Made by a program: the position numbers and the translations under genes. The notes beneath the pieces were generated by a model that was not told where the DNA came from, searched no databases, and saw only the letters and a list, made by a program, of their open reading frames with translations. A stretch of DNA of 59,859 nt, filler included. It is 4 parts of 4 records of this genome, joined end to end, with 100 filler letters (N's around TTAATTAATTAA, not from the genome) between each part and the next. Parts side by side here need not be neighbours in the genome. Positions count along the whole stretch, not along the records: positions 23,828 to 39,113 come from DRR723986_1356; 3 more parts are not named here. One strand, 5' to 3'. Below, piece by piece: positions 23,828 through 51,645 of the stretch (positions within the stretch are counted from its first letter, which is position 1; every line of letters begins with the position of its first letter).

Positions 23828-23871
23828 GCTCGACCCTGTTTTTGGCTAATATTCGCAGCGGAATATTTCAT
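23828..23871 (-). CDS. Possible 5' end of a gene running into the gap (MKYSAANISQKQGR...)
   Basis: ATG at 23871 preceded by a strong GGAGGAGA RBS; only 14 codons visible. Confidence 0.4.
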
Positions 23872-24220
23872 GATTCTCCTCCAATAGTTATGTGCCTTTT
23901 ATTCAGCCCAGTCCCAACTCACACACCACTCTCCATCGTGCAAGACTTCGGCTTCAACATCTTTGCACCACACTTGAATTGCCCCAATTTGAGACTATGG
24001 GTTCACTCGACAAACTTGATCATTGGTATGGTATACCTGTTTTCACGATACGGCAGCGAACGGACGGCTGATCATAAGGCACTTAGCCTTAGGCGCTACC
24101 CCACCAGGACAATAGACATTTGGTGCAGAGACAAACAAAAATGTCATAAAGCAAGCCGACAGCCCTGGGGCGGCGCTGCAATCAGTATTCAACAGATCCG
24201 CTGCAAGTAAACACTTAAAC

Positions 24221-24251
24221 AAAAAAGCCGGCTCAAATTAATGAACCGGCT
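24221..24251 (-). terminator. Terminator of the paa operon
   Basis: On the minus strand: AGCCGGTTCA-ttaatt-TGAGCCGGCT followed by TTTTT. Confidence 0.75.
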
Positions 24252-24381
24252 CAAAATGTTAATCGCCAAGTCAAATAGCTGCACAATGCAAAATTGAAAG
24301 CTTAAACAAAAAAATTACACAGCAAAGTCATACAGAATGTTAAGCGGAAACACTTAAACAAAAACTCACAGAATTGATTGT

Positions 24382-24870
24382 TTAAGCGACCGGTTTAAAC
24401 TGTTCAAATGCCTGCGAACAATTTTTGCAATAGTGAATCGCGCGGCACAAAGTTGGCCCAAAGGGCGACTGCAGAATCGTGTTGCGACTGCTACACCAGG
24501 GGCATTCAACGTTGGATAATACTTCCAGCGAAATATAACCATCACTGTGCTCAGGCGGCGCCAGTCCTGACTTCTTCAGCATTTCCTTGCCCTTTTCCGT
24601 AACGCGGTTGCTACTCCAGGGCACTTCAAACGTGACTTTAACTTCAACGCTATCGAGCGGCAATTGCTCAACGCGTTCCTTAATGTCTTTTTGAATATAG
24701 TCGAGCGCGGGACAGCCCGAAAAGGTCGGCAAAAAAGTGATATCTGCTTTATTGTCCTGGAGCTTAACTTCGTGAATCATACCCAGATCCACTACGGAAA
24801 CGTATGGAAGCTCGGGGTCCATGACCTCGGTTAAGGCTTGCCAGATATCGTCTTCAGTAATCTGAGGCAT
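24382..24870 (-). CDS. paaD: 1,2-phenylacetyl-CoA epoxidase subunit D
   Basis: VMDPELP..SVVDLG, PTFSGCPA, CPWCSS...FGPTLCRA..YC..C...FEQFK. Confidence 0.93.
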   Translation of the reverse strand: MPQITEDDIWQALTEVMDPELPYVSVVDLGMIHEVKLQDNKADITFLPTFSGCPALDYIQKDIKERVEQLPLDSVEVKVTFEVPWSSNRVTEKGKEMLKKSGLAPPEHSDGYISLEVLSNVECPWCSSRNTILQSPFGPTLCRAIHYCKNCSQAFEQFKPVA

Positions 24871-24883
24871 AAGCGCTCTCTTT

Positions 24884-25657
24884 TTACCATTCCGCTGCAG
24901 GATCGGAGCGCAGGACTTCGCCCATCTCTTCGATCAGCGCAGCCAGGTGTTCGCTGTGATAACCTTTACGGCCACCAAGATGTTTATTGGAAGCGTCGGC
25001 TTCTTTAACATCCGGCATCGTAAGTCCGGCATGTGCAATGGTTGTTTCGATGTGTTCGAGCCATTTTTTGCGCAGGTGCGCTACACCGGGATACACACCG
25101 GCGTCGATTAACTCCTGCTCATGTGAGAGTTCTTCAAACAGGCCGAGTGCCATCGGAAATGTTTCGTTAAGTGCCGACTGCATGCGTGCGCGGCTTTCTT
25201 CAGTGCCTTTGCTGACCTGCGCTACCCAGGTATTGCCGTGCATGATGTGGTATTTGATTTCACCCAGAACTTTGCGTGAGACCTGTGCGAGCGGCTCAAA
25301 GCTGGATTCGGCCATGGCGGCAAATCGCAGATATGAGGCTTGATCAAACAGAAAGTGGCGCATGAGTGAAAATGCATAACCACCAATTGGATATTCAACC
25401 AGGTGGCTACAGCGGTATTCGGCTTCGGGCCGCAGGAATGCGATTGTATCGGGATCCTGCTCGCCAAGGTCGCGGTGCAGGATTTCATAGAGCGCCAGTG
25501 ACTGGCCCATCTGGTCCTGCGACATCGAAGAAAAGGCGATATCCTCTTCGAGCAGCGGCCCTAGCCCGGTCCATTCGGAGTTGCGATGTCCCAGAATTAG
25601 CAGGTCGTCCGCCGTTGCGTACAGCAGGCTTTTAAGCGCGTCGTTACTAGCTGTCAT
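24884..25657 (-). CDS. paaC: 1,2-phenylacetyl-CoA epoxidase subunit C
   Basis: ADDLLILGHRNSEW.G.GP.LEEDIA, EIKYH and GGRKGYHSEHL motifs; start moved to MTASNDAL. Confidence 0.92.
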   Translation of the reverse strand: MTASNDALKSLLYATADDLLILGHRNSEWTGLGPLLEEDIAFSSMSQDQMGQSLALYEILHRDLGEQDPDTIAFLRPEAEYRCSHLVEYPIGGYAFSLMRHFLFDQASYLRFAAMAESSFEPLAQVSRKVLGEIKYHIMHGNTWVAQVSKGTEESRARMQSALNETFPMALGLFEELSHEQELIDAGVYPGVAHLRKKWLEHIETTIAHAGLTMPDVKEADASNKHLGGRKGYHSEHLAALIEEMGEVLRSDPAAEW

Positions 25658-26030
25658 TGTGTCTTTTCTTGAATTGTTCGATGCGATTACGGACTTTATA
25701 GAATCCAGCTTCACGGTATTGTTTCTCCGGAACGGATTCCCACATGTCGGAATGTTCATCACCTACGGTATGGATATCACCCGTGCGGATGACCCAAATG
25801 CTCGTACTTGTGCTGCGCCGGCCATACTGTTCTTTGGCGAAGAGAAACGCCATTTCAGGGCTGGGAGCATGTACGGAGCCGACGTGCGTATGCCGTCCGC
25901 CGCGTTTGGCCTGATGAAACACTTCGTAGGTTTCGAAATAGTCACGACGTTCCAGCGGCTGCATAGCCTGCTCGTCATCTTCGATGTTAAAACGCGTTAC
26001 GCGCGGATCAAGCGACTTAATGGTCGACAT
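25647..26030 (-). CDS. paaB: 1,2-phenylacetyl-CoA epoxidase subunit B
   Basis: YEVFHQ..RG..H.HVGSVHAPSPEMA...AKEQYGRR....SIWV motif, with a ~30-aa N-terminal extension. Confidence 0.9.
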   Translation of the reverse strand: MSTIKSLDPRVTRFNIEDDEQAMQPLERRDYFETYEVFHQAKRGGRHTHVGSVHAPSPEMAFLFAKEQYGRRSTSTSIWVIRTGDIHTVGDEHSDMWESVPEKQYREAGFYKVRNRIEQFKKRHNDS

Positions 26031-26163
26031 CCACCCTTCCACTCGGTTCGATTATGATAGATATTCGCTTAGGGTCTCGAAATAAACTCGGAAATCTTTC
26101 AGCATCTGGAAAACTACCGCAGCCAGGTGTTAACACATTTGGCTGCGGCATATGTTTCAGAGC

Positions 26164-27150
26164 TTAGCTGAGAGGCACTGTGTACTGTGTCTCAGGCCGC
26201 AGGAGGGCGTCACGCACCCACTTGCCGCGTTCTTCGGCCGTGCGGCGTACCGCCAGGCGTTCCTTGTTGCACGGTCCGTCACCACTGATAACGCGTTTGA
26301 ATTCGTTCCAGTCCGGCTCGGTGTATTCCCACTTACGCGTTTCTGGATTCTTGCGCAGGTTTGGATCCGGCAGCGTCAGTTCCAGTTCCCAGATTTTGGG
26401 AACGTACATGTTGAGGAACTGCTGGCGCATTTCATCATTGGAAGCCATTTTGACTTTCCAGCGCATGAGTTTCTCACCGTGGACCGAGGCTTTGTCGGGA
26501 GGTCCAAAGAAGTGCATGATGGGCGGCCACCAGCGCGTGAGGGCGTCCTGCAGAGCTTCACGCTGCTCGGGCGTGCCTGTTGCCAGGTGCACGACGGCGT
26601 CGTAGCCATATTTCAGGTGGAAAGATTCTTCCTGGCAGATGCGTTCGAGGGCGCGGCAGTATGGTGCGTACGACCCCTTGGAGTTTGTTACCTGGTTGAC
26701 AATTGCGCCGGCATCGATGAGCCAGGCAATGACGGCCGTATCGGCCCAGGTTTTGGCCGGATAGTTAAACACGTTGGAGTATTTGGACTTTCCGCTGATC
26801 AGATCGTTGATCATTTCCTCGCGGGATTTGCCAAGTGTTTCGGCAGCATTATAGAGCAGCTGAGCGTGCCCGACTTCATCCTGAACCTTGGCGGCCAATG
26901 CCAATTTGCGGCGGAAACCCGGCGCGCGTGTAATCCAGGTGCCTTCCGGCAGCGCTCCGATAATTTCGGAGTGTGCATGTTGTTCGATCAAACGAACTAA
27001 CTGGCGGCGGTATTCAAACGGCATCCAGTCATGCGGCTCTATCTTTTCTCCGCGGTCAATCCGCGCTTCAAATTCGGCCAGTTTGACTGGATCGTCATCG
27101 TCTTTGTGATCCTGCAACGGCTTATCAAAAATATATCCACCACCGTACAT
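26164..27150 (-). CDS. paaA: 1,2-phenylacetyl-CoA epoxidase subunit A
   Basis: [36 protein letters not shown] and EESFH diiron motifs. Confidence 0.96.
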
Positions 27151-27386
27151 GAAGCACCTCTTTCCAGAATATTATGCGGGATGCTGGCGCACATCCGCGT
27201 AAGGAGAGTTAGCAACTCAAAAAATCGAAGTTAGGCTAAATACGATCATCATGCAATGACATTGTGCTGCGCCGGCCCGGCAAAGCGGCAGCACTTGCTG
27301 AATTCTGCCGGTCAAATAGCGCCTGCCCCGATTCGTCTTGGGCGCGAGCCAAACCCGACAAGCACGCAGCAATACTGGAGCTAAGT

Positions 27387-28199
27387 ATGAATTACGAACT
27401 CGTAGACTTTGAAAAAGACGTCATCTCCGCCAGTTCGGTCAAACCGGTTTTAGTCGATTTCTGGGCCGCCTGGTGCGGGCCCTGTCGCGTTCTGGGGCCG
27501 ACACTTGAGGCTCTGTCCGCAGAACAGTCTGAGCGCTGGACACTTGTTAAGGTCGATACTGAGCAGCATGCGGACATAAGCAGCAAATATGACGTGCGCG
27601 GCATTCCGAATGTAAAACTTTTTGTGGACGGCGAAGTCGTGGACGAATTCACCGGCGCTCTGCCGGAGCGAGCACTGCGTGAGTGGATTGACAAGGCGAT
27701 TCCAAACCCGCTCGACGAGGACGTGCGCCAGGCAGTTGCAATGCTGGCCACCGGTGAGACTTTGGCTGCGCGTGAGAAGCTTCAGGCTGTGCTGGACGCA
27801 GCACCTGGACACATTGGCGCCGCTGCACAGCTGGCCCGCTCGATAGTGCTTGACGACCCCACGGCTGCGCGTGATTTAGTTGCCGAAATCTATGAGAATT
27901 CGGCTGAATTTGAGATTGCCGAAAGCGTGCGCACCCTGGCATCACTGCTGCGTTTCCTGCCCGACGGTGCGGAGCTTTCTGAAGCCGAAGTGCGCGCAGA
28001 TTTCCTGGATGCAATCCGCGCCGTTTACGCCAAAGAGTTTGATGCCGCCATTGAGAAACTGATCGAGGTTGTCCGGCGCGACCGCTATTACGAGGATGAT
28101 GCGGCGCGTAAGATCATCATTGCCCTGTTTAAGCTACTTGGAGAAGACAACCCAATTACTCTGCGCCACCGCCGCAGTTTTGACGGCGCACTGTACTAG
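27387..28199 (+). CDS. Thioredoxin-TPR protein (YbbN/CnoX-like)
   Basis: PVLVDFWAAWCGPCR thioredoxin domain plus helical TPR C-terminus; ATG 27387 behind GGAG. Confidence 0.88.
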   Translation: MNYELVDFEKDVISASSVKPVLVDFWAAWCGPCRVLGPTLEALSAEQSERWTLVKVDTEQHADISSKYDVRGIPNVKLFVDGEVVDEFTGALPERALREWIDKAIPNPLDEDVRQAVAMLATGETLAAREKLQAVLDAAPGHIGAAAQLARSIVLDDPTAARDLVAEIYENSAEFEIAESVRTLASLLRFLPDGAELSEAEVRADFLDAIRAVYAKEFDAAIEKLIEVVRRDRYYEDDAARKIIIALFKLLGEDNPITLRHRRSFDGALY

Positions 28200-28386
28200 A
28201 TCAGAGAGTCTTATGATTTCAGTTAGGGCCGCAATGGAGCGGGAGTATTTAAAGCCTATATAACCGTTATTGCAAAATGTACGCCTCCAAGCGGGTATAA
28301 GCAAACATGAATTGCAATAACGGCTGTAAATGCATCGAACATGCCAGTTGTTGTGCCGTGTCTGAAAATCTGCGAGTTGATTGAGA

Positions 28387-28845
28387 TTATTTACGCAGTG
28401 CGTTGACGATTTCCCACTCACCCGCTGTTACGGGCATAATGCTTAGTCGCTGGCCTTTGCGCAGGAGGAGCATGTCTTCCAAACCTTCGGTGCGTTTGAG
28501 TTCAGCAAGCGTGATTGGGTCGTCGAAACCGGAGTGTTTTTGAACATCAACAACTGACCAGCGAGGATCTTCGCTTTTGCTCTTGGCGTCGAAGTACTTG
28601 CTTTCCGGATCAAACTGCGTGGGATCTGGATAGGCTTCACGGACGATTTTGACGATACCAAAAATGCCGACGGGTTTGATGACGCTGTGGTAGAAAAACG
28701 CCAGGTCACCGATTTTCATGTCGCGCATAAAATTGCGCGCCTGGTAATTGCGAACGCCTTCCCAATGATCACGTTGCTCTTTTTCGGCTAATAGTTCAGG
28801 CCAGCCATAGGTATCGGGATCACTTTTCAACAGCCAGTATTGCAT
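28387..28845 (-). CDS. EVE domain protein
   Basis: YWLLKSDP...WEGVRNYQARNFMRDMKIGDLAFFYHS...RLSIMPV; start at MQYWLL behind GGAG. Confidence 0.92.
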   Translation of the reverse strand: MQYWLLKSDPDTYGWPELLAEKEQRDHWEGVRNYQARNFMRDMKIGDLAFFYHSVIKPVGIFGIVKIVREAYPDPTQFDPESKYFDAKSKSEDPRWSVVDVQKHSGFDDPITLAELKRTEGLEDMLLLRKGQRLSIMPVTAGEWEIVNALRK

Positions 28846-29056
28846 TTGAGGCTCCGCTTTGGGGTTCTTGGGGAGAATCTGGAATCTTGCGTCAGGACGT
28901 GCAAATCTACGGAATTTCGGATTGGGGCCGGCAGTCTGTTTTTTTGGTGCTTTGGCTTGGCTCATGTGGCTTGGAAACAGATGACCAAAACGTTTGCTCT
29001 GTTTGTTGTTTTTCCAATTGTTTCCAAGATGTTTAAATGTTTAGGGTTTTTGAAAG

Positions 29057-29277
29057 CGCACAAATTGCATAAATACAATGACGTGTGCGACCAGTAAACA
29101 TGCGGCTTGAGCCGTTTTTGAAAATTCTGAAAACGAACAATTGGCATAGTCAAAACGAACATAATGCATAAGTAAACGAACATTATGCATAGTTAGCCCG
29201 CACAAAATGCATAGCTAAGGCGCACATTATGCATAGTCAAAACGAACAACAGGCATAAAGGCGCACAGTTTGCATAG
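29057..29277 (+). repeat. Iteron array (putative replication origin)
   Basis: 16-bp core CG(A/C)ACA-N4-GCATA(A/G) starting at 29134, 29156, 29177, 29199, 29221, 29243 and 29262 (spacings 22,21,22,22,22,19), plus an outlying copy at 29057; lies upstream of a Rep_3 gene. Confidence 0.85.
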
Positions 29278-29313
29278 AACCGGGCCTAATTTGTTGGACT
29301 TTTTACCGTTTAT

Positions 29314-29857
29314 CTATGCAAAGTGTTCGTTTAACCACGATTTAGGTACCGTTCATTCGATTTGACTTGACGATCACATGCGATTTGGCGCCAAATCGTG
29401 CCGGATCCGGGAATCGCGCAGTTTCGGGCATGCAAAGTGTTAGGTTTAGCAGGTCAATTTTGGCGTACCTGAGTGCCGTCTTTGCCAGGATTTACACTTT
29501 TTTTGCGGCTATGCTAAAAAAAGTCAGGCTATCCGGCTTATGCCAAATGTTCGGTTTGTAAAATCTGGTGTTGCGGCTGTGTGCTAATGAATTTGGCTGA
29601 ATTACTTGCTGATTTGGCGTTTCAGATTTATGCATTTTGTTCGTTTTAGCTTGAGAGACCTCCCTGCTTGTCCGCACTGTTGTTTCGTTTGAATGTCTTG
29701 ATGTACCCGGCCTGAGGCACTGAACTACTACTGGAATTCGAGAATTTGGGCTTATGCATTTTGTTCGTTTTACGGATTTGCAGCTGCCTGAATAACTGCC
29801 GATGACTATGTACTCCTGAGCCGATGTTAGGGCCCGGCGCCTTATGCATTTTGTTCG
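29314..29857 (-). repeat. Dispersed inverted iteron copies
   Basis: Reverse-complement cores at 29314-29329, 29538-29553, 29628-29643, 29752-29767 and 29842-29857 (last three identical, TTATGCATTTTGTTCG), plus a degenerate copy near 29429. Confidence 0.8.
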
Positions 29858-29923
29858 GAATCTTGTGTTTATGGGCCTTGCCGCACGGCCAGGGCTAAAA
29901 TTATACCTGCCGGAATCGTCAAT

Positions 29924-29950
29924 CCGAACAGATATTATTTGTATGTTCGG
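29924..29950. promoter_or_regulatory. Inverted half-iteron repeat, putative Rep autorepression operator
   Basis: CCGAACA-gatattatttgta-TGTTCGG, 31 bp upstream of the likely rep start. Confidence 0.6.
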
Positions 29951-29981
29951 TTATTGGTTTTGTACAACTTTGGATCCAACA

Positions 29982-31391
29982 GTGGCGCGCAAAAAGAAAG
30001 CGGACGAAGTAGTGGTGAGCACCAGGCAGCGGTCAAAGAGCAAGTCCAAGATTTTGCTCAAGAAACACTCTGCCCTGGTGCAGATGAAGAATGTGCCGAC
30101 GGCCGGTCAGCGCAAGCTGCTGAACACGCTCCTGCAGATTGCGAGCGAACGCCTGCGTGACAACCAGAATACACGCCTGTTTACGACTAATTTCAGTGAG
30201 ATTCGCCACCGCAGTGGTATGCAAAAAGAGACGAACTACCAGCGTGTCAAAGAAGCGTTGGAAGGGCTTGCGAATGTCAACGTCAAATACAACGTGCTCG
30301 ACAAGGACAAGGAAGTTGAATGGGGCGTGTTTGCGCTTGTCTCAGAAGCCAAGGTCCGCTCGGACGGCACAGTCACATTTGCTTTCCCACCTACGATTCA
30401 CGATAACATCCTCTTCCCTTCCATGTTTGCCGTTCTGAATACGGGGATCATCAATGGGCTGCGCAGCAAGTACGCGATTGCGCTGTATGAGCTCCTGCAG
30501 GATTACCGGCGGATCGGTATGGTCACGATGACGATTGATGAGTTTCGTGAGCTGATGGCACTTGAGAGTGAATACACCGAGTTTTCAATGCTGCGGCGGC
30601 GCATAATTGATGCGGCTATCAAAGAGATAAATCGCAAAACCGACATGCGCGTGACCTACGAGTGCATCAAGAGCGGCCGCAAATACACTGACGTGACTTT
30701 CTTTGTTTCCGGTGCAGCCAATCCAAGTGCCGAGGATCTTAGTCTTTTTCAGGGCGTTAGTGAAGAAGCCGGTAAGGTGCCGAATGCGGCGCTGGCGGCG
30801 CGATTGCGGTATTATGGCATTGCCGAGCAGCGCGCGATAGATTATGCACGCTCCAAGTCGGAAGCCGAGCTGACGACGGCGCTCAAGCTTTTTGAAAAAC
30901 GCTACGAACGTGGCGGCGTTGAAAACCCCGCCGGTATGCTGATCTACTTCCTGGAAAATGTTGTGATTGGCAATGCACACAAACACATGCCCGTCAGCCC
31001 GCGGATTCAGACCAGTTCGGATCAGAACAATCAGCAACATGAAGAGACATTGCGTGAGCTGGAGCAGCTCTTCCGCGGCCATTGTGATACAATTGTTGCC
31101 GCACGGGTGGCCAAAGTAGCGGCAGAAGAAATTGAAGATTTTGTAGCGCAGTACGCCGGCAACGACATCGTTCTGGATCAACTCAGGAATGCTGAAGGTG
31201 ATTTTGACCACGAAGTCATCACCCACCACCGCCTGTTTTTGGCGTTTTTGTACTCCAAGTACGTTGATGAAGAAGCCGAGTTTATTCGTTTTGCGCGGTC
31301 ACGTGGTTTTGTTGTGGCCCGCAAAGCCGATGGTTTTGTGATTGTTGGTGCGCAGACAGCCCCTGAAAAACAGCTTTTTGAAGAGAAATAA
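29982..31391 (+). CDS. Rep_3-family (winged-helix) plasmid replication initiator with a long C-terminal extension
   Basis: KKHSALVQM...QRKLLNTLL (WH1) and LRSKYAIALYELLQDY...IDEFRELM...LRRRIIDAAIKEIN (WH2); start placed at GTG 29982 because the upstream in-frame part overlaps iterons. Confidence 0.88.
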   Translation: MARKKKADEVVVSTRQRSKSKSKILLKKHSALVQMKNVPTAGQRKLLNTLLQIASERLRDNQNTRLFTTNFSEIRHRSGMQKETNYQRVKEALEGLANVNVKYNVLDKDKEVEWGVFALVSEAKVRSDGTVTFAFPPTIHDNILFPSMFAVLNTGIINGLRSKYAIALYELLQDYRRIGMVTMTIDEFRELMALESEYTEFSMLRRRIIDAAIKEINRKTDMRVTYECIKSGRKYTDVTFFVSGAANPSAEDLSLFQGVSEEAGKVPNAALAARLRYYGIAEQRAIDYARSKSEAELTTALKLFEKRYERGGVENPAGMLIYFLENVVIGNAHKHMPVSPRIQTSSDQNNQQHEETLRELEQLFRGHCDTIVAARVAKVAAEEIEDFVAQYAGNDIVLDQLRNAEGDFDHEVITHHRLFLAFLYSKYVDEEAEFIRFARSRGFVVARKADGFVIVGAQTAPEKQLFEEK

Positions 31392-31431
31392 GCCGATGGT
31401 TCTGACTGGATCAATCACCCGAGTAGCCGGC

Positions 31432-32600
31432 AATATATAAGTATAAATGTATGTAAATAAAGATGTGGGTCTGTCATGTATGTTTTATACCCTCCCCTAT
31501 TGATTTCATTGACTGTTGGGTGAGCTCTCGATTCTGCGGGAGGTGTTGTGCGCAGCCCTTGAATAAATAAGTATAAAAGTACATACATAAATACTGTAGC
31601 CTGTGTCTGAGTATTTTTGTTTTGTAAGCTCTCCCCTGCTTGTGTTGCTTGTAAGGACTGCCTATACTGGTAACTCTTTAGAATTCACCTTAAGCAGCCG
31701 TGTTATTGCTGCGGTTGTGGGGCCTGCATTGCTGTTTGGCGGTTTAGTCTTGCCGGCTATATAAATGTATAAATAGGGAAGCGGCTAAATGTTTATATGC
31801 ATGCCAGATATTGATGAGGCCTGTTGTCGCCTGGTTTTACGCCTCTGAAGCCTGTGTCTATCTGGTTTTGTGCGGTTTATGATTTACCGGTTTAGCACTT
31901 ACACTGACTCTGATTTGGACTCCAGACAGTACTTCGGGGACATGTTGCTCCGCCTCTAGAACTCACCTTGAAGTTTGCCCTCAAGCGTACTGTGAAGTTT
32001 GAGGGTAAGTCTGCATCTTTCTATGTACCACCTTCCCTACTGCCGAATGAGGCGCACATTTTGGCTGCAACACGGAATATATAAGTATAAATGTATATCA
32101 GTGATTATGCATAAATTGCACTTTATAACCACTGCCTTTACAGCCAACCTTGCGCGATTGGTACTTGCAGCAGCTGAGGCTACGCTTCAATATATAAGTA
32201 TAAATGTGGATATGTATAATTGCCGATTAGTTTTTAATGTTTTGTGGCTACATGTCCTCACTGCTTTCTACGCGTGATTGTTTTCACCCGGCAATAGACT
32301 GCCAGAATTCTTGCATTAATACAGCTTTGTATTCCGACATTCATATGTTTTGCTTTTAATACTGGAATCCGGCTAAATATTCATACAAATAATTGTATAG
32401 ACTGCTAATCATTAAAATGTACTCATGGCTAAACATTCAAAGATAAATCTTCAGATACTGCGGTACATTTATAGTTATGGATGTAGAAACGTTCAAATAT
32501 TCATAGTTAAAAGTGCAAATACGGCAAAACATTCTTATATTTGTGCGTTGGAATGTTCCTATTATTAATAATAAGAACATTTATAAATTTTTATTTTTAT
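31432..32600. repeat. AT-rich non-coding region with dispersed 19-mers and 8-bp repeats, candidate centromere/operator
   Basis: AATATATAAGTATAAATGT exact at 31432, 32076 and 32189, variant at 31562; many A(C/T)ATT(C/T)A(A/T)-like octamers at 32337-32585. Confidence 0.6.
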
Positions 32601-32627
32601 GCATCATCCGAGCAGCAAGAGGACGGC

Positions 32628-33200
32628 ATGAAAATTCTGGTATACAATTTTAAGGGGGGAGTGGGGAAGACTGCCTTTTCACTGGCATATGCTCTCGAAA
32701 AAGACTTCGGCGTCGTGACCAATGACACCTACAGTCCGCTTGAGAAAGTCTTACCCGACGACCGCGTGCTAAAACTGAAGAAAAACGCTTCAGTTCCGAG
32801 CTTTCCGGATGATTACGATATCGTCTTTGATTTTGGTGGTTATATCGACCAGCGCGTCATTGAAGCCGCCAAAATGTCCGACTGGGTCATAATTCCGACT
32901 GCGCCTGACTTCATTGAGTTGCAGGTAACGCTTGAAACGATCAAAGAGGTTGAGCGCCACAACAACAAGATTGTGATTGTGGCCAACAAGCTCGGGAAGG
33001 ACGACCTGGAACACATCCAGGAGGTCATCGGCAAGTTTTTTGACTATCCGATCTTTCCGCTTAAGAACTCACGTCTCTTTGGCAAGATATTCGAAGAACG
33101 CAAGGCCATCTCGGCGATCGCCGGCGAAAACGGCCTGGCGCGTTACACCTACCGGGCGGTAATCAAGCAGTTCAAACAGATTCTCAAGCACATCGGCTAG
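32628..33200 (+). CDS. parA: ParA-family ATPase, short type Ib-like form without an N-terminal HTH
   Basis: MKILVYNFKGGVGKT deviant Walker A, DIVFDFGG Walker B, VIIPT and IVANK motifs; ATG 32628 behind GAGGA. Confidence 0.88.
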   Translation: MKILVYNFKGGVGKTAFSLAYALEKDFGVVTNDTYSPLEKVLPDDRVLKLKKNASVPSFPDDYDIVFDFGGYIDQRVIEAAKMSDWVIIPTAPDFIELQVTLETIKEVERHNNKIVIVANKLGKDDLEHIQEVIGKFFDYPIFPLKNSRLFGKIFEERKAISAIAGENGLARYTYRAVIKQFKQILKHIG

Positions 33201-33279
33201 GTCTGGTCTCGGCGCAGTTCCAATTGTCAGAATCAATCGTCTGAATCACAATCAACAGTAACGGGGAAGGGAAGCTCTC

Positions 33280-33534
33280 ATGGCTAAAAAGAAAATGGAC
33301 CTCTCGAATTTTTCGCTGGATAAAGACACACAGGTGCTCAAATCCGATAAAAAGGACGTCGGCCGGCCAACATTCAAGGATGCCGACACCGAGTACACAA
33401 CGATTACAGCGCACATTCCGGTTGAGACCAAGAAAAAAATGATGCTGGCGCTGGCAACCACATATTACGACCAATACAAAACGCAGGCCGAACTCATCAA
33501 TGATGCGATTCTGGCTTTCATCGAGGGCGAATAA
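33280..33534 (+). CDS. Small ParA partner, probable ribbon-helix-helix DNA-binding protein
   Basis: Directly after parA; basic flexible N-terminus with GRP; alternating strand TITAHIP followed by two helices. Confidence 0.7.
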   Translation: MAKKKMDLSNFSLDKDTQVLKSDKKDVGRPTFKDADTEYTTITAHIPVETKKKMMLALATTYYDQYKTQAELINDAILAFIEGE

Positions 33535-33601
33535 GCGCGCCGCAAACCATAGAACCATTATCCGGCCGGCATCGGCCAGTATCCAGCCGATATCACCAAC
33601 T

Positions 33602-33710
33602 GTCATAACTTTGACGGATTTCAGTCTGTGCCCCGACATCTTATCAGCTCAGTCCACACTTTGACCACTTGCCTGCGGGCTCTTACCGCTAAACCCGTCA
33701 AAACTTTGAC
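33602..33710. repeat. Three copies of a 14-bp quasi-palindrome GTC(A/C)NNACTTTGAC
   Basis: GTCATAACTTTGAC at 33602-33615, GTCCACACTTTGAC at 33652-33665, GTCAAAACTTTGAC at 33697-33710. Confidence 0.7.
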
Positions 33711-33932
33711 ACTTGCCAAACGGCTCTGACAGTCGCCGGAGACCATCGCTGCAGTCAATATTTCCGTCTTGAGCAGCCCCCTGCACAAGGCAAATAATCC
33801 CGATTGGCTGTTGGTGCCGTCGATCTGCAGTTTCCAAAGCCTGCGGCCCGGTTTCATTGGAATCACAAGACATTCATCAAACTCTCTGCATCCACCCAGA
33901 TATGTTCCTGAACCGCAAATTAAGTGTTGGAC

Positions 33933-33986
33933 GCTAAGCCGCACTTAGCTATATTCGCTATTGAGATATTTGAATAATCAATAGCG
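33933..33986. promoter_or_regulatory. Two palindromes directly upstream of imuB, candidate operators
   Basis: GCTAAG-N5-CTTAGC at 33933-33949 and CGCTATTGA-N13-TCAATAGCG at 33956-33986. Confidence 0.45.
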
Positions 33987-33996
33987 GTTTTAAGTC

Positions 33997-35187
33997 GTGC
34001 CGAATGTCATCGAAGAGCGGGAGCCCTCCCGCGATATTATTTGTTTATGGTTTCCCGATTACCCGGCCTGGGTTTGGGCCGACCTGCGTGGTCACGACTC
34101 TGAAATAGCAGTCAGCGAGGATGGTAAAGTCTGCGCTGTTAGTACGGCCCTGCGTCGTCGTGGGCTGCGTGGTGGAGAAACCACGGCGCGTGCGCGCAAT
34201 GAATTCCCACAGGCGGAATTTGTGCTGCGCGAAATCTCTTTAGAGAAATCCATGTGGCGGCGTTTGCTGCCGACCATCAATGCACTGAGCCCCAAGTTGA
34301 GTGCGCCACGGCCGGGGCTGGTCTTCATCGATGCCGAGCGGCCGCAGGCCCTGGCTACCTTCGTCAGCGAATCACATATTCGTGCCGGCCGCGCGCCCTG
34401 GCATACGACGGCGCTGCTGGCGGCCCTGGCGGGCGACATCGGCGAGATTCGGCATGTGAGCGAGGCGGGGCTGAATGACTTCCTGAATGCCAGTCCGCTG
34501 AGTGTTCTGCTGGAACTGGGGCCGGAACTGGGAATTGAAAAGGACATGCTCGAAAAATTACCGCTGTTTGGATTTACCTCACTCGGCGCCCTGCGCCGCC
34601 TTGGTCGCCGCCACCTGCAGGCGCAGTTCGGTCCACCGGGAATTGTCCTGTTTGATCTGCTCAATTCGGTGCGGACACCCAAACCTCTGCCCGACTACCA
34701 TCCACCGGCTGAGATATACCTGCACCGCCGCCTGGAATTTGATGCCTGCGAACCCTGCGAACTCTTGCCACACATGCGCGACCTGTTACAGCAGGCTGCA
34801 CGTGAGCTGGGGGAGCGGCGCAGTGGTCTGGCGACGCTTGAACTTGAACGTGCCGATGGGGAAGTCGTAGCGGCTTCCAAGTTGCTCAAGGAACCAACGC
34901 GTGACGCCGCCAAACTCTTTGGTGTGGTGCGTACGCTACTGCCCGGCCTGCTCAGCGGCATGGCCGTGGACGTTGTAGCCATCCGCCTTGGCAGCCTCAG
35001 CAATGCACAATACGTTCAGGAGCGTCTGCTCGACCGCCGTATCCGCGTTGACGGCGCCGTGGCGCCCGTCCTGCGCCGCTACCCCCAGGGGCTTAAACAG
35101 GCTGAAATTCAAAACCCGGATGCCTACCTGCCCGAAGACGGCATCCGCCTGCAGATATGGCCGCTCAGCGGGCCGGCACGGCAGTGA
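33997..35187 (+). CDS. imuB: ImuB-like catalytically inactive Y-family polymerase
   Basis: IICLWFPDY and VCAVS.A.RRRGLRGG....AR...P fold motifs without catalytic acidic residues; HhH-like FGFTSLGAL; QERLL clamp-like motif; upstream of dnaE2. Confidence 0.8.
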   Translation: MPNVIEEREPSRDIICLWFPDYPAWVWADLRGHDSEIAVSEDGKVCAVSTALRRRGLRGGETTARARNEFPQAEFVLREISLEKSMWRRLLPTINALSPKLSAPRPGLVFIDAERPQALATFVSESHIRAGRAPWHTTALLAALAGDIGEIRHVSEAGLNDFLNASPLSVLLELGPELGIEKDMLEKLPLFGFTSLGALRRLGRRHLQAQFGPPGIVLFDLLNSVRTPKPLPDYHPPAEIYLHRRLEFDACEPCELLPHMRDLLQQAARELGERRSGLATLELERADGEVVAASKLLKEPTRDAAKLFGVVRTLLPGLLSGMAVDVVAIRLGSLSNAQYVQERLLDRRIRVDGAVAPVLRRYPQGLKQAEIQNPDAYLPEDGIRLQIWPLSGPARQ

Positions 35188-35221
35188 TGCAGGACCACAA
35201 ACTTTATTCACGTAATCGACC

Positions 35222-35467
35222 ATGGAGTCTGACATGCGAATGTATCTGGAACCAATAACTGTTGACGGCAATGTGCGCGCGCCACGCCGCTTCTACTGGC
35301 GCAAAAAAATCCTGGAAGTCCGCGAAGTACTCGAACGCTGGGTCTCACAGACCGAGTGGTGGAATCAGGAGGAACGCCGCCTGTATATGCGCGTGCTGAC
35401 GGGGGAGGGGATTGTTGAAGTTTACTGCAGCAGTGACCGCTGGACCTTATCACGCATCATGGACTAG
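35222..35467 (+). CDS. DUF6504 / stand-alone ImuB-C-like small protein
   Basis: PRRFYWR.....V.EVLERW.....WW....R.Y.RV...W.L.RI.D pattern; lies between imuB and dnaE2. Confidence 0.78.
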   Translation: MESDMRMYLEPITVDGNVRAPRRFYWRKKILEVREVLERWVSQTEWWNQEERRLYMRVLTGEGIVEVYCSSDRWTLSRIMD

Positions 35468-35479
35468 GAGAGCGTTACC

Positions 35480-38400
35480 GTGTTTGCATACCTGCATGTC
35501 CGTAGCTGGTTTTCCTTTCTCAACGGCGGCTCTTCACCCGAGGCGCTGGCCGACCGCGCATCGCGCCTGGGCGTCAAGGCGCTGGCGCTGACGGATCGCA
35601 ACGGCGTCTATGGCGTGGCGCGCCTGCACAAGGCCTGCACGCTGCTTGGCATCAAGCCGATTTACGGCACGGAGCTGACGCTGGACGACGGCACGCCGCT
35701 GGTGCTCCTGGCGCGCAGCAATGCGGGGTATACGAATATCTGCCGACTGCTGACGGAAGCACATCAGCGCGACCGCCTCGATCCGCGCCTGTCTCTGGAC
35801 GATCTGTCCGCTTATACGGAGGATCTCTTTTGCCTGAGCGGCGCGCGTGGCAGCCGCCTGCGCAACCTGGTGGAGGAGCGCTCGATGCCTGCAGCGCGCC
35901 AGTTGCTGCGCCGCCTGCAGAAGCTGTTTGGTGAAATGTTCTACGTTGAACTCTGCCACCACGCGCGCCGCGGCGATAGCATGGACAATGCGATTCTCTT
36001 TCGCCTGGCCGCTGACGAAGGCATCGCCCCGGTGGCTTCCGGCGACGTGCATTACGCCACCAACGATGATTATATGCGCTACGATCTACTTACCTGCATT
36101 CGCCTGGGGCAGACCGTTTTTGATTCCCATCGCGAGCGGCCCGTTAATGCCGAGGCCTGCCTGCGCAGCCGCGAGGCCCAGCGTTATCTGATTCCCTACC
36201 ACCAGGCTTTTGACAACGCAGCGCAGATTGCTGAAGCCTGCAATGTTGAGCTGTTTCCCGGCCACGTGGTGCCGCCACACACACAGCTGCCGCCGGGTGT
36301 TAATGACGGCGCGGCCTACCTGCGCAGCCTGTGCCGATCGGCCCTGACGCGCCTGTATCCGCAGGAGCAGGCCCGCCGCCGCGCTGACGCGCTGATGCGT
36401 AAAGAGCTGGAAGTCATCATCGATCTGGAGCTGGAAGAATTTTTTCTGGTAGTGCGCGAAGTCGTGGATGAGGCGCGCCGCCGCAACATCCGCTGTGCCG
36501 GGCGTGGCTCGGCCGCCAACTCAATCGTAGCCTACCTGCTCGGCATTACCGCCGTGGACCCGATACGCCACAAATTGCTCTTTGAGCGTTTCCTGCACCG
36601 CGGCCGCAAGGGCACACCCGATATTGATGTTGACTTCGATTCCGACCGCCGCGATGAGATCATTGCCTGGATGGAAGAGCGCTTCGGCATCGAGCAGACC
36701 GCCATGACCGCCACCCTGATCACCTACCGCCTGCGCTCCGGACTGCGTGACTGCGCCAAGGCGCTCGGCTACCCCCTGCCGCTGATCGACAGGATGTGCA
36801 AAGCCGTGCCGCCGGCGAATGCCGCACAGATACGGATTTATAGCGATCACCTGCAGGAAGTTGCCGGCGCCTCACCACTGCTGGAAACTCTGCTGGACAT
36901 GGTCGAACGTCTGGAAGGCTGCCCGCGTCACCTGGGGCTGCATTCGGGCGGCATGGTCCTCTCACGCATTCCGCTGTATCAGCTGACGCCCGTGCAGGTC
37001 TCGGCCAACGGCGTGAAAGTCGTACAGTTTGACAAGGACGACGTGGAGGCGTTTGGCCTGGTTAAACTGGATGTTCTGGGGCTGCGCATGCTTGCCACGA
37101 TCGGCGAAACCCTTGAAGTCATTGAGCGTCATGAGGGCCAGGCCGCGCCGCTGGACGAAGCACCACTCGACGAGCCGCGCGTCTTTAACCTGATCCGCGC
37201 CGGCAAAACCATCGGCGTCTTCCAGATAGAATCGCAGGGGCAGATGCACCTGCTGGCACAGCACCAGCCCGAAGAATTTAACGACCTGATCAACGAGGTC
37301 GCACTTTTCCGGCCCGGGCCGCTACAGGGTGGAATGGTTAATCCATTCGTTCGCCGCCGCCGCGGCCTGGAGCCGGTCTATTATGAACATCCCGACCTGG
37401 AACCCGTGCTCAAAGACAGCTACGGCGTCATCCTTTTTCAGGAACAGATCCTGGAAATTGCGCACCAGTTTGCCGGGATGAGCCTGGAATCCGCCGACGA
37501 CTTCCGCGCGCTCATGTCCAAATTCCGCGATCCGGGGGAGATGGAGCGCATGCGCAGCGTTTTTGTCGATGGCGCCGTGGCGCGCGGCGTGCCTACCGCC
37601 GTGGCCAACAGCGTTTTTGATAAAGTCTCCAAGTTTGTCGGTTATGGTTTTTGCCGCAGCCACGCCGCCGCTTTTGCCAAAACGGTCTATCAGTCGGCCT
37701 GGCTTAAAGTCTTTTACCCGGCGGCGTATATGGCGGCGTTTATGCAGCACCGCCCCGGCTTTTATCCGCTGCTGACGCTGGAGGAAGAGGCGCGCCGTAT
37801 GGGCGTGGGAATCCTGCTGCCCTGTATCAACCGCAGTGGCGTGCGTTATGATATCGAACGCAGCGCCGCCGATGCTCCCTGGAAAATTCGCAAGCCGCTC
37901 AGCGCTATTAAACACGTGCCGGAGGATGTGGCGCGCGCCGTTGTCCTCGACCGTCTGGACGCGCCGTTTACATCCGTTGAGGACTTTATGGAACGCATCC
38001 GTCCGGACCGCGATGTGGCCGAAGCCCTGGCACGTGGTGGCGCCTTTGACAGCCTGGCCGGTGACGCCCGCCGCGCCCTCTGGCTTGTGGGTGTTTTGCT
38101 GCGCCGCCTGGACCCCGAAACCGATACGACCCCACGTCTTGCACTGGACACACCACTGATTTCCGAGCGCGATGTTCCGCAGCTGGAAAAACTCGACAGC
38201 GGTGAACAGGTCGCCTGGGATTTTGCTACACATGGTGCCGCGCGTGTTCACCCTATGACGCTGATACGGCGTACACTTAACAATCTGGAGGTGCGCCCCA
38301 TCGCTACGGCCTACAGAATGCGCGACCGCAAAAAGTTTCGCAGCGATCCCGACCCGCAATTGTTAACTGCCGGCATTGTAATTCTGCGTCAGCGGCCGCC

Positions 38401-38791
38401 CACGGCGCGCGGGGTGATGTTTGTAACGATTGAGGATGAGAGCGGCTTCATGCAGTGTGTTGTGCTTCCGGAAGTTCAGGAATTGTTAATGCGCACCATC
38501 ACCGGTCCGGCTTTAATCGTGCAGGGGCCGCTGCATATTATGGGTAATTGGCGCGGTCTGGTTGTTGAACATGCCTGGCCATTGCGTTCGGTTGCCGGTG
38601 GGTTTCGTGGACATCCTTCGGCCGCCGGTGGCCAGGATCAGCACGTGCGCCAGGCCGAGTACTCGGAGCACGAACTGCGCGCACTTTCACAGGCAATGCG
38701 CCGCGAATATATGGTTGATGACAGCGGTCGTCTTGTGGTCCAGACCAGTGGCCCGTTGCAGCAGAATGCGGTGACGCGGCGGACGCGTTAA
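35480..38791 (+). CDS. dnaE2: Error-prone DNA polymerase III alpha subunit (DnaE2/ImuC)
   Basis: LHVRSWFSFL.G, GRGSAANS.VAY.LGIT, PDIDVDF, PRHLGLHSGGMV, GYGFCRSHAAAFA and RQRPPTARGVMF.TIEDE motifs. Confidence 0.93.
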   Translation: MFAYLHVRSWFSFLNGGSSPEALADRASRLGVKALALTDRNGVYGVARLHKACTLLGIKPIYGTELTLDDGTPLVLLARSNAGYTNICRLLTEAHQRDRLDPRLSLDDLSAYTEDLFCLSGARGSRLRNLVEERSMPAARQLLRRLQKLFGEMFYVELCHHARRGDSMDNAILFRLAADEGIAPVASGDVHYATNDDYMRYDLLTCIRLGQTVFDSHRERPVNAEACLRSREAQRYLIPYHQAFDNAAQIAEACNVELFPGHVVPPHTQLPPGVNDGAAYLRSLCRSALTRLYPQEQARRRADALMRKELEVIIDLELEEFFLVVREVVDEARRRNIRCAGRGSAANSIVAYLLGITAVDPIRHKLLFERFLHRGRKGTPDIDVDFDSDRRDEIIAWMEERFGIEQTAMTATLITYRLRSGLRDCAKALGYPLPLIDRMCKAVPPANAAQIRIYSDHLQEVAGASPLLETLLDMVERLEGCPRHLGLHSGGMVLSRIPLYQLTPVQVSANGVKVVQFDKDDVEAFGLVKLDVLGLRMLATIGETLEVIERHEGQAAPLDEAPLDEPRVFNLIRAGKTIGVFQIESQGQMHLLAQHQPEEFNDLINEVALFRPGPLQGGMVNPFVRRRRGLEPVYYEHPDLEPVLKDSYGVILFQEQILEIAHQFAGMSLESADDFRALMSKFRDPGEMERMRSVFVDGAVARGVPTAVANSVFDKVSKFVGYGFCRSHAAAFAKTVYQSAWLKVFYPAAYMAAFMQHRPGFYPLLTLEEEARRMGVGILLPCINRSGVRYDIERSAADAPWKIRKPLSAIKHVPEDVARAVVLDRLDAPFTSVEDFMERIRPDRDVAEALARGGAFDSLAGDARRALWLVGVLLRRLDPETDTTPRLALDTPLISERDVPQLEKLDSGEQVAWDFATHGAARVHPMTLIRRTLNNLEVRPIATAYRMRDRKKFRSDPDPQLLTAGIVILRQRPPTARGVMFVTIEDESGFMQCVVLPEVQELLMRTITGPALIVQGPLHIMGNWRGLVVEHAWPLRSVAGGFRGHPSAAGGQDQHVRQAEYSEHELRALSQAMRREYMVDDSGRLVVQTSGPLQQNAVTRRTR

Positions 38792-39113
38792 GTAGTTAAC
38801 AATACATGTTAATCGTTGCGGCGGCATTAAACTACGTTCGGCATGTTAAGTTGGTGGGTTGGCAGTTTACAAGGAGTTGTTCTGGGCTTTGTTTAAGTCA
38901 CCGGTTCGGATGTGGCGCTTTGAGCCCGGCCTTACACTTGCAGTGCCGTCCTGGTCTCAGGCTGGTTGGATTTTCTTGTTTGTCCCGCTCCGCTACGGTG
39001 CCGTATTGTTAATGCTTCGTGAAAATATATGAGAATGCGGCTAGTCCAAAGGCTCAAAACCCCAAAAATTTATGTTTCTATACCCGGTGTGATTTTGATA
39101 GCAGTCGCTCTCA

Positions 39114-39213: not shown

Positions 39214-39730
39214 CGAGCCTGAGCCAGAACCCGAGCCTGAGCCTGAGCCTGAGCCAGAACCCGAGCCGGAGCCAGACCCAGTTATATTGGCAGAAGCTGG
39301 CGTATATTCTGCACTGCCTCTTGGTGAGTCATTCACGTTAGACGGCTGTGGTTCAACGTTTGAAGACGAGGCTTTTTGTAACCTTGTAGATACTGGTGCC
39401 TTTACCCTGACATGGATTTTGGGTGAAGAGATACTTGGCACAGGACAAACCCTGTTGGTTGAAACAGGAGATGGAACCTCTTTTAACACAGCAAACAATT
39501 ATCAAGTAACTTTACAAGTTCGCTATGACGGAAGCATTGGCAACAACCAGACAGTTAACCTGATTACTGGTGGTAGCTTGTTCCTGCCTGGCGATTTGGT
39601 TTTAACGAGTGTGGATGATGCTCTCGTAAGACTATATACCGTACCTGAACCTTATGGTTTGTTACTCTTGGCTCCAGGACTTGCATTTATGGCCCGTCGC
39701 CAACGAAAGAAACGAAAGCCTGAGGCATAA
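39214..39730 (+). CDS. PEP-CTERM surface protein, C-terminal fragment with an (EP)n linker and a PKD-like domain
   Basis: Frame open from the gap: (EP)10-DPVILAEAG...TLDGCGS...W...YQVTLQV; ends VPEP, hydrophobic helix, RRQRKKRK. Confidence 0.85.
39215..39280 (+). repeat. Hexamer tandem repeat encoding Glu-Pro
   Basis: GAGCCT/GAGCCA/GAACCC units; probably the cause of the contig break. Confidence 0.85.
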
Positions 39731-39766
39731 TCTGCCGGTAGGTTTATACAAATTGCACCTAACAAC

Positions 39767-39800
39767 AAAAAAAGGCCCGAACAGCGTTCGGGCCTTTTTT
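39767..39800. terminator. Bidirectional rho-independent terminator
   Basis: AAAAAAA-GGCCCGAAC-agc-GTTCGGGCC-TTTTTT between convergent genes. Confidence 0.9.
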
Positions 39801-39823
39801 GTTAATATCTAATAGTGCCAGAC

Positions 39824-40225
39824 TTACATTCCGTATTCATCAACACCTGAAGACAAAAGCCGCGCAAGCCCAAGAACCTTCTTCCTAATCCGGGGATCAG
39901 CAATTCGATAATAGGCATCCACAAGTTCTTGGGTTTCTTCCCTGTCAAAAACGGCATCCCCCATGGTCTCGTTAATTGACACATAACCAGGCATTTTTGT
40001 TTCCGCACCCTCAAAAAAGTAAGCGACAGGCACATCAAGTGTATTTGACATTCTGAATAGGCGGCTAGAACCAATACGATTGGTTCCTCGTTCATATTTT
40101 TGGACTTGTTGGAAAGTCACGCCCAATTCATGTCCTAATTGCGTCTGCGATAGACCAAGCATTTTTCTGCGGGCACGTACTCGCTGACCAACATGAATGT
40201 CTATTGGATCTGGACCCGTGGTCAT
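39824..40225 (-). CDS. XRE-family HTH transcriptional regulator
   Basis: PIDIHVGQRVRARR..LGLSQ..LG..LGVTFQQVQKYERGTNR, typical of alphaproteobacteria. Confidence 0.92.
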   Translation of the reverse strand: MTTGPDPIDIHVGQRVRARRKMLGLSQTQLGHELGVTFQQVQKYERGTNRIGSSRLFRMSNTLDVPVAYFFEGAETKMPGYVSINETMGDAVFDREETQELVDAYYRIADPRIRKKVLGLARLLSSGVDEYGM

Positions 40226-40444
40226 AATAGTCTCTCCAAAATTAACTTCCCCGTAAAGTGCATAGAATACTATCTGGAGTATAATTGATGCTCACTCAAC
40301 AAAAAACATACAGTTTTTCTATTAATTTCTTGAACTCGCTGTTTTTTCAGCACTAATTATTTAAAAAAAATCCGCGGAATACCTCTGACATAAATATGTC
40401 ATAACGTAAAAAAACTATAAATTCTATTTTTGCGAATCAATACG

Positions 40445-43102: not shown

Positions 43103-43105
43103 AAT

Positions 43106-43597: not shown

Positions 43598-43718
43598 AAT
43601 TCGCCTTTTGAAAGAAGAATAGTTTAATAAATGCTATTTTATTAGCACAAAAAAACGATAACGAAAGTAAAAGAATACGCACTGAATAAACAAATACGCC
43701 TATTGCGCTATACTGTGC

Positions 43719-44384: not shown

Positions 44385-44440
44385 AGTGTGCCCTTTCATC
44401 TGGCAGCTCCATTGGTACCCTCTAAGGGCAACCATCTCGC

Positions 44441-46034: not shown

Positions 46035-46064
46035 TAATTGCCCTTCCAGAGACTATTATTATTT

Positions 46065-51637: not shown

Positions 51638-51645
51638 TCAAAGTA

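Follow-up and report, generated by a model that had tools for sequence, protein, structure and literature searches.

Iteron plasmids such as F, R6K and pPS10 encode an initiator of the Rep_3 class (RepE, pi and RepA, respectively; PF01051/PF21205) with WH1 and WH2 domains. Beside rep, plasmids of this class carry tandem direct repeats of about 22 nucleotides (nt), the iterons, together with extra copies that potentially control copy number and an inverted pair of half-sites before rep. Partition systems of type Ib, such as ParF/ParG of TP228, combine a small ParA that has a KGGxGKT box and no DNA-binding N-terminus, a small protein encoded immediately downstream with a flexible basic tail and a strand-helix-helix C-terminus, and AT-rich repeats upstream of parA. 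Here we describe a locus that has both kinds of machinery on one contig (positions 23828-39113) of a 59,859-nt stretch of DNA, referred to below as the window, where an iteron/Rep_3 origin and a parA module lie between paaABCD and a mutagenesis cassette.

According to Harrison et al. (2010), as quoted in the accessible portion of PMC12456017, chromids have plasmid-type replication and partition, a host-like composition and core genes. The same portion quotes a lower size limit for megaplasmids of 350 kb after diCenzo and Finan and of 100 kb after other authors, and its chromid survey gives an average of 1.98 Mb with sizes down to 0.04 Mb. For Deinococcus, the available text of PMC8072749 describes a plasmid-borne imuY-imuB-C-dnaE2 cassette without imuA, in which ImuY and DnaE2 are required for ultraviolet mutagenesis. 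An error-prone polymerase cassette is likewise plasmid-borne in Cupriavidus taiwanensis (imuABC); as far as the available part of PMC4151985 describes it, that cassette is of the proteobacterial imuA-imuB-dnaE2 type and sits on a large transferable symbiosis plasmid, whereas the one studied here lacks imuA and lies on a small plasmid with no mobility genes detected.

We conclude, with a probability of roughly 0.78, that the contig is a piece of a circular theta-type plasmid of about 80-95 kb with a low copy number, a member of a small, vertically inherited lineage in uncultured, probably Bacteroidota-like bacteria. The best label for it is a plasmid of less than 100 kb with no detected mobility genes, a host-like composition and apparently vertical inheritance. 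An earlier note on this DNA had recognized a complete plasmid-type iteron/Rep_3/ParA origin with chromosome-like cargo on a separate replicon, and this was borne out, as the block lies in two relatives on a closed circle apart from the dnaA contigs. All of the genes it had named (paaABCD, Trx-TPR, EVE, Rep_3, ParA, RHH-like, imuB-like, DUF6504 and dnaE2) and the iterons are present, on the strands it had given. Its further step, to a secondary chromosome or megaplasmid, did not hold: the closed relatives measure 78.2 and 94.8 kb, or 1.4-1.7% of genomes of 5.6 Mb, which is below both the 350-kb and the 100-kb thresholds.

The origin is recognizable from its repeats (Table 1). We searched the window for the iteron core CGMACANNNTGCATA (CG[A/C]ACA-N3-TGCATA, at most one mismatch) and found 14 matches, compared with 0.52 expected; 0 of 100 shuffles reached this number. 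Thirteen of the 14 fall within 29057-29857, in the 800 nt upstream of rep, and the remaining one is at 26972 inside paaA. The layout of one outlying, seven direct and six inverted copies is identical in the window contig and in both relatives, and the inverted copies are presumed to be copy-control or handcuffing sites. The palindrome of two iteron half-sites is 93% conserved in both relatives while its flanks are unalignable; its position and shape are those to be expected of an operator for Rep autoregulation, which it presumably is.

The Rep protein matched both Rep_3 domains well above threshold (Rep3_N, PF01051, 78.3 bits vs a cut-off of 22.4; Rep3_C, PF21205, 67.1 bits vs a cut-off of 21.1). 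The start of the longest rep open reading frame (ORF), at 29844, falls inside an iteron, the last copy, and the relatives align from residue 47 onward; the start is therefore likely the GTG at 29982. This anatomy of Rep and iterons has mechanistic parallels in RepE, pi and RepA. Unlike the plasmids of the F/R6K/pPS10 type, the locus has no conserved DnaA box and its Rep has a C-terminal extension of about 180 amino acids (aa). The extension (30842-31391, residues ~290-469) has no family match, is conserved in relatives down to ~35% identity, and can be aligned at 24% with some Pseudomonas aeruginosa plasmid Reps. Against the 72,556 plasmids in PLSDB, Rep reached at most 42% identity, and none of the 4,194 matching records reached 60%; the best matches were a Geobacter anodireducens plasmid (42%, 41% coverage) and a Pelobacter propionicus plasmid (38%). 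The DNA of the rep-par module had no match in PLSDB, and a metagenome scan with the Rep alignment gave 25 loci, all at 39% identity or less, with no further close members.

To find relatives, we scanned one genome per prokaryote species with Rep. This yielded two loci with a close Rep (78% and 84% identity), G002:C26 (78,215 nt) and G001:C31 (94,891 nt), both in public metagenome-assembled genomes (MAGs). The block from paaD to dnaE2 is collinear in the two at 72-83% nucleotide identity (~76% overall), and all 12 block proteins are intact, at 67-97% aa identity. Each of these contigs ends in an exact terminal overlap, of 55 nt in G002:C26 and 127 nt in G001:C31; these lengths are common assembler k-mers. 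The two are circular permutations, each uninterrupted across the other's break. Because of the terminal overlaps and the permutation, both relatives close into circles, which measure 78,160 and 94,764 nt once the overlap is removed. The break is inside dnaE2 in G002 and inside rep in G001, and the window contig spans both positions; since the breaks are within genes, they cannot be the att sites of an element that has integrated. The junctions of EVE with the iterons and of par with imuB, at which the earlier note had feared a misassembly, are reproduced in these two independent assemblies, so that a misassembly there is excluded. In the 41 genomes surrounding G002, 8 had some Rep_3 match, and identity above 40% was seen only in G001 and G002. 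Three members of the lineage are known at present.

The G001 and G002 genomes are ~5.6 Mb each, with one dnaA match (on another contig) and one Rep3_N match apiece. A comparison of composition with the host, which had been suggested as a check, was run on these relatives and showed the circle to be host-like: its guanine-plus-cytosine (GC) content is 0.53-0.55, vs 0.52-0.59 in eight host pieces, and its tetranucleotide correlation (r) with six of these pieces is 0.93-0.97 and with the remaining two, which are set apart from the other host pieces as well, 0.71-0.82. G001 and G002 share 88.5% identity on the circle (69.1 kb compared) and 90.8% on the dnaA contig (12.1 kb compared); such similar divergence of plasmid and host is as expected under vertical inheritance. 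The sole RpoB of G002 (G002:C8) scored 1372 bits against 9n9p_C and 1341 against 8dkc_C in a single full-length stretch, with the next chain at 1148. As far as the available parts of the sources state, 8DKC is the RNA polymerase of Porphyromonas gingivalis (PMC11685472) and 9N9P belongs to a Flagellimonas taeanensis RNA polymerase set (bioRxiv 10.1101/2025.06.10.658880), both Bacteroidota. By sequence similarity, the host of the relatives is probably Bacteroidota-like. As far as the MAG binning can be trusted, the relatives thus bear out the suggestion of a non-proteobacterial host.

We also characterized the genes carried on the circles. The cargo includes Mpl, a nucleoside transporter, a TonB-dependent receptor, a Mn/Zn ABC transporter, a DnaQ-DinG helicase, a UmuD-like S24 peptidase, DinB_2, a sigma-54 activator, a Ser/Thr kinase-TPR protein, histidine kinases, EutBC, a glycosyltransferase and an ArsS-type radical SAM enzyme. 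The G001 circle has an extra low-GC block of ~29 kb (27.3-56.8 kb; GC content lowest, 0.42-0.47, at 25-50 kb) that is absent from the G002 circle. This block encodes an AcrB-type resistance-nodulation-division (RND) pump fused to an outer-membrane factor, an HlyD adaptor, MerT-HMA, ArsR, a DtxR-type repressor, a di-haem oxidoreductase, an extra Lgt and a DDE transposase fragment; it represents an insertion of metal-resistance genes, a plasmid-like variability. Among 97 circle ORFs scanned (61 + 36), we found no relaxase, type IV secretion system, coupling protein or integrase domain and, by family naming, no rRNA and no evidently essential gene, whether ribosomal, of the replication core or of another kind. 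Both circles lack tRNA genes. The Mur ligase encoded there is Mpl, a recycling enzyme, not MurC, and the Lgt on the G001 circle is an extra paralogue, one of four Lgt matches in that genome. On the window contig, no integrase, transposase, relaxase or toxin-antitoxin domain was found among the 14 ORFs scanned, and there was no tRNA and no Rfam family, in agreement with the earlier note on the absence of such genes.

The partition module follows rep. ParA, whose protein begins MKILVYNFKGGVGKT, belongs to a family of ~190-200 aa in which K9, G10, G11, G13, K14 and T15 are invariant in 32 sequences. Most of its relatives carry PF01656 or PF13614, and its matches to solved ParA chains are weak (E = 2.6e-4 and 6.8e-3). 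The 84-aa protein encoded downstream has 40 relatives at E ≤1e-3 among 1.84 billion representatives; across the family the basic N-terminal tail varies, GRP(T/S) is near-invariant and the C-terminal half is conserved. It has no Pfam match and no significant match by sequence to a PDB chain, and 5 of 30 relatives have weak VapB-type ribbon-helix-helix (RHH) matches. In its AlphaFold model, a disordered tail is followed by an extended segment and by two helices; the predicted local distance difference test score (pLDDT) is 83-92 for residues 31-84. The top Foldseek rows for this model are mostly RHH proteins (the PutA DNA-binding domain, NikR, ParD, CopG and the pCXC100 centromere-binding ParB), which is suggestive of an RHH fold. 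A predicted complex of ParA with the 84-aa protein scored 0.30 against a mark of 0.34, which speaks neither for nor against binding. We take the pair to be like ParF/ParG of TP228, with which it shares the small ParA, the small downstream protein and the AT-rich repeats upstream of parA; it differs in that the RHH likeness of the 84-aa protein is by fold only and the centromere is only a candidate.

That candidate is the rep-parA spacer, which in the window contains four to five dispersed ATATAAGTATAAATGTA-like motifs, with inverted copies near parA, and three 39-nt repeats (32375-32533) directly upstream of parA. The spacer is unalignable among the three copies of the plasmid; each keeps four to six dispersed AAGTATAAATGTA-like motifs and an inverted copy at the parA start. 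The AAGTATAAATGTA-like motifs and the 39-nt repeats are candidate centromere and operator sites. An ORF within the spacer (31999-32277) is not conserved and probably not a gene. A 17-nt AT-rich spacer motif has one exact extra copy, at syntenic positions far from the origin (G002:C26 58,900 and G001:C31 81,780, minus strand), and a sampled 154 kb of chromosome gave one match with three mismatches; the extra copy may be a second partition or regulator site.

To the right of the partition module, the imuB-like gene, DUF6504 and dnaE2 are the published imuY-imuB-C-dnaE2 cassette. Deinococcus deserti plasmid 1 has the order LexA, Y-family polymerase, 80-aa "DUF6504 family protein" and DnaE, and its 80-residue protein is identified as a stand-alone ImuB-C in the available text of PMC8072749. 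The window has the same gene order, an ImuB-C of about the same length and, again, no imuA. The Deinococcus cassette is headed by lexA, whereas here the upstream DNA is 462 nt of non-coding sequence, with no LexA-domain ORF between 33534 and 33997, and DnaE2 is only 37% identical to the Deinococcus versions. An S24 peptidase gene of UmuD/LexA-like type is found at another place on the relatives' circles. The best PLSDB match of DnaE2 is on the 103-kb plasmid pIAD-21 of an Abditibacteriota bacterium (46%, similar gene arrangement), followed by Thermus, Thermomicrobium and Deinococcus at 36-40%; the first proteobacterial record is at 36%. The view that this DnaE2 is unlike proteobacterial versions was therefore well founded, as the cassette is of the Deinococcus type and not of the imuA-imuB type. 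We considered DUF6504 as an undescribed mutasome subunit and dropped this idea, as it is the published ImuB-C; the name "DUF6504" was not found in use in the literature. DUF6504 occurs in 5 of 201 sampled genomes of the phylum of G002. The circle-borne dnaE2 is the sole copy in both relatives' genomes, and the replicative dnaE (dnaE1) is on another contig. The UmuD-like S24 peptidase gene (G002:C26 62,692-63,006, minus strand; 129 bits vs a cut-off of 110), the DnaQ-DinG helicase and DinB_2 share the circle with the cassette, a concentration of DNA-damage functions on the plasmid.

On the left side, PaaA is 96-97% identical to the relatives' proteins at ~76% nucleotide identity of the DNA, so that the cargo is under purifying selection; PaaB (94%) and PaaD (80-81%) are also conserved at the aa level. 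PaaA had been read as a sign of a non-proteobacterial origin. Its best plasmid-borne matches are from Alphaproteobacteria (57% identity), and it is uninformative either way. The circle-borne paaA and paaC are the sole PaaA/PaaC-family genes in both relatives' genomes. The paaABCD genes stand alone, with no paaE reductase or other paa catabolic genes nearby, and the epoxidase may have a role other than classical phenylacetate catabolism.

Table 1. Coordinates of the contig and of its features (window positions).
Feature	Position	Strand	Description
Contig with the locus	23828-39113		15,286 nt; replicon fragment that holds all features below
paaD	24382-24870	-	1,2-phenylacetyl-CoA epoxidase subunit D; Zn_ribbon_PaaD, FeS_assembly_P; TIGR02159 168.9 bits vs cut-off 108
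paaC	24884-25762	-	TIGR02158 227 bits vs cut-off 133; start codon uncertain, ORF overlaps paaB
paaB	25647-26042	-	PF06243 84 bits, above Pfam cut-off; NCBIfam 77.5 bits, below 85.45 cut-off
paaA	26164-27150	-	TIGR02156 439 bits vs cut-off 280; protein begins MYGGG
Thioredoxin + TPR_20 protein	27264-28199	+	Domain matches; likely start ATG 27387
EVE-domain protein	28387-28965	-	PF01878, 183 bits
AT-rich 50 nt	29001-29050		Candidate DNA-unwinding element; 72% A+T, highest beside the iterons
Single outlying iteron	29054-29074	+	Core match
Seven tandem iterons	29131-29279	+	Presumed oriV; 19-22-nt spacing; number and layout same in both relatives
Six dispersed inverted iterons	29312-29861	-	Upstream of rep; cores 29315, 29429, 29539, 29629, 29753, 29843; spacing 90-124 nt
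Palindrome of two iteron half-sites	29923-29952		CCGAACA-N13-TGTTCGG; 30 nt before rep start
rep	29982-31391	+	Rep_3 initiator (WH1 + WH2); 469 aa from GTG 29982; ~180-aa C-terminal extension
rep-parA spacer	31392-32627		Candidate centromere and par operator; AT-rich, 40% GC
parA	32628-33200	+	190-aa ParA/MinD-class ATPase; deviant Walker A KGGVGKT; no N-terminal DNA-binding domain
84-aa partner gene	33280-33534	+	Presumed ParG-like centromere-binding protein; GRPT motif, strand-helix-helix
imuY/imuB-like	33997-35187	+	Y-family polymerase homologue; weak IMS + IMS_C matches; IMS_C 22.0 vs cut-off 20.7
DUF6504	35222-35467	+	Stand-alone ImuB-C; 36 bits
dnaE2	35480-38791	+	Error-prone DNA polymerase; 897 bits, under the model's 939-bit cut-off

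Taken with the parallels above, these features suggest how the plasmid may be maintained. Rep monomers would bind the seven tandem 22-nt iterons and melt the adjacent AT-rich DNA, and Rep dimers would bind the half-site palindrome and repress their own gene. The six inverted iterons between origin and rep, together with the outlying copy, could titrate or handcuff Rep and so limit the copy number, which we presume to be low. Segregation would be driven by the type Ib pair, in which the 190-aa ParA is the ATPase and the 84-aa RHH-like protein the adaptor that presumably binds the AT-rich repeats upstream of parA. On the plasmid reading, the paaABCD, Trx-TPR and EVE genes and imuY-imuB-C-dnaE2 are cargo that was already on this backbone before the three known copies diverged and has stayed with it.

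Several observations weigh against a circular plasmid with this kind of origin and partition module. The window contig has no terminal overlap and is thus open at both ends, and the outermost 554 nt on its left and 322 nt on its right are unmatched on either relative's circle; that the window copy is a free circle would be an extrapolation from the relatives. No perfect DnaA box was found near the iterons, and the one-mismatch matches are not positionally conserved. Cumulative GC skew, another check that had been suggested, gave no clear origin at the iterons of the closed relatives: on the G002 circle the minimum is at ~2 kb and the maximum at ~38 kb with the iterons at 70.3 kb, and on the G001 circle the skew is disturbed by its island. 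The earlier note had also pointed out that most genes face away from the iterons; this is true of the window contig and does not extend around the closed relatives, where orientation gives no support, with 28 of 63 and 35 of 77 ORFs (≥100 aa) co-oriented. As skew, orientation and DnaA boxes are uninformative, the assignment of the origin rests on the anatomy of Rep and iterons and its conservation. In the partition module, the window ParA is below the Pfam cut-offs (25.0 vs 27; 22.8 vs 25.4), and every RHH match of the 84-aa model has E ≥0.64. Lastly, the host assignment depends on MAG binning, and the public label of G002, "uncultured Hyphomicrobiales bacterium", conflicts with its RpoB; the label or the bin may be wrong.

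The open ends bring up the possibility that, in the window organism, the module is an integrated, ex-plasmid island of the chromosome or sits on a replicon far larger than those of the relatives. The unmatched DNA to the left of paaD and to the right of dnaE2 does imply a different neighborhood, and ~24% nucleotide divergence from the relatives leaves room for rearrangement. We nevertheless consider this very unlikely, given that the contig is without integrase, transposase or tRNA, that both relatives are closed circles, and that rep, the iterons, the operator-like site, parA and its partner are intact and conserved, which would be unexpected for a decaying integrated origin. That the juxtaposition of plasmid and chromosome-type genes is an assembly chimera is barely credible. 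The record is mixed, with other contigs from other organisms, and the GC content steps from ~0.45-0.50 in the rep-par part to 0.61 in imuY and dnaE2; however, the same order and the same junctions recur at 72-83% identity in two independent assemblies made with k-mer sizes of 55 and 127.

More serious is the proposal of a chromid, here a true but unusually small one, that is, an indispensable secondary replicon carrying genes the host needs. The locus shares with chromids the plasmid-type replication and partition genes, the host-like composition of both relatives' circles and conservation across related species: backbone and the same cargo persist across three copies despite a nucleotide divergence of ~24%, and each of the 12 genes is intact. 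Divergence is close to that of the chromosome, mobility genes are absent, paaA/paaC and dnaE2 are present in both relatives as sole copies on the circle, and chromid sizes reported in the accessible portion of PMC12456017 reach 0.04 Mb. Still, we regard a chromid as improbable. No tRNA, rRNA, ribosomal or other evident core gene was found on the relatives' circles among the ORFs scanned; the Mur ligase is the recycling enzyme and the Lgt one of four. The paa genes and the mutasome are accessory functions, a ~29-kb block is present in one relative and absent from the other, and the circle, merely 1.4-1.7% of the genome, is far below the typical chromid size (average 1.98 Mb in the same portion of PMC12456017). 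Essentiality itself is not readable from sequence.

Between the plasmid reading, which we prefer, and a chromid stands a "domesticated" mini-replicon, one that has lost mobility, taken on host composition, co-diverged with a Bacteroidota-like lineage at about genus-level distance and become the sole carrier of paaABCD and of an SOS mutasome (imuY-imuB-C-dnaE2 plus the umuD-like, dinG-like and DinB_2 genes). We hold this idea only tentatively and think it unlikely on balance. If true, it would be an incipient chromid of a size at which hardly any chromids are known, and having error-prone repair on a replicon of its own, under copy control, could be the very trait selected.

We also examined the rest of the window, which consists of four contigs (1-23727, 23828-39113, 39214-50822 and 50923-59859) joined by N/TTAATTAATTAA spacers. 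Their GC content is 0.621, 0.526, 0.448 and 0.633, respectively; by tetranucleotide correlation the first and fourth agree with each other (r = 0.98) and neither resembles the second (r = 0.64), and the third is unlike all others. With at least three compositions (GC 0.62-0.63, 0.53 and 0.45), the source record is a metagenome or a contaminated bin. The first contig carries choline sulfatase, choline and peptide ABC transporters and PEP synthase, the third a proteobacterial-type pepN, an MNIO bufferin maturase and MotB, and the fourth leuA and mreB-mreC-mrdA-rodA, all of them ordinary chromosomal genes. We considered these three contigs as the host chromosome of the plasmid and rejected them: because their composition differs and they have no synteny with the G001 and G002 genomes that carry the plasmid relatives, these neighbors are unusable for that purpose. 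On the third contig, the bufferin maturase gene (45150-46034, minus strand) is an MNIO-family BufB (376 bits vs a cut-off of 310); near it is a 1085-aa ORF without an NCBIfam match (46656-49913, minus strand), and the contig starts with a run of Pro-Glu-coding repeats (39215-39280). The non-coding left end of the plasmid contig contains three CTTAAACAAAAA-like motif copies (24210-24370).

The locus reveals no new kind of replicon or mechanism and is an ordinary plasmid type. What it provides is a clean case, with closed circles, of a Rep_3/iteron plasmid lineage whose host is uncultured and apparently Bacteroidota-like, with a Rep at most 42% identical to PLSDB entries and a complete origin architecture conserved in three diverged copies. 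This is of use for typing plasmids in metagenomes, and the backbone might be turned into a vector. The imuA-less imuY-imuB-C-dnaE2 cassette known from Deinococcus is here found on a further plasmid and in a further host group, and the locus shows how far a small plasmid can drift toward chromosome-like composition and vertical inheritance while remaining short of the chromid definition.

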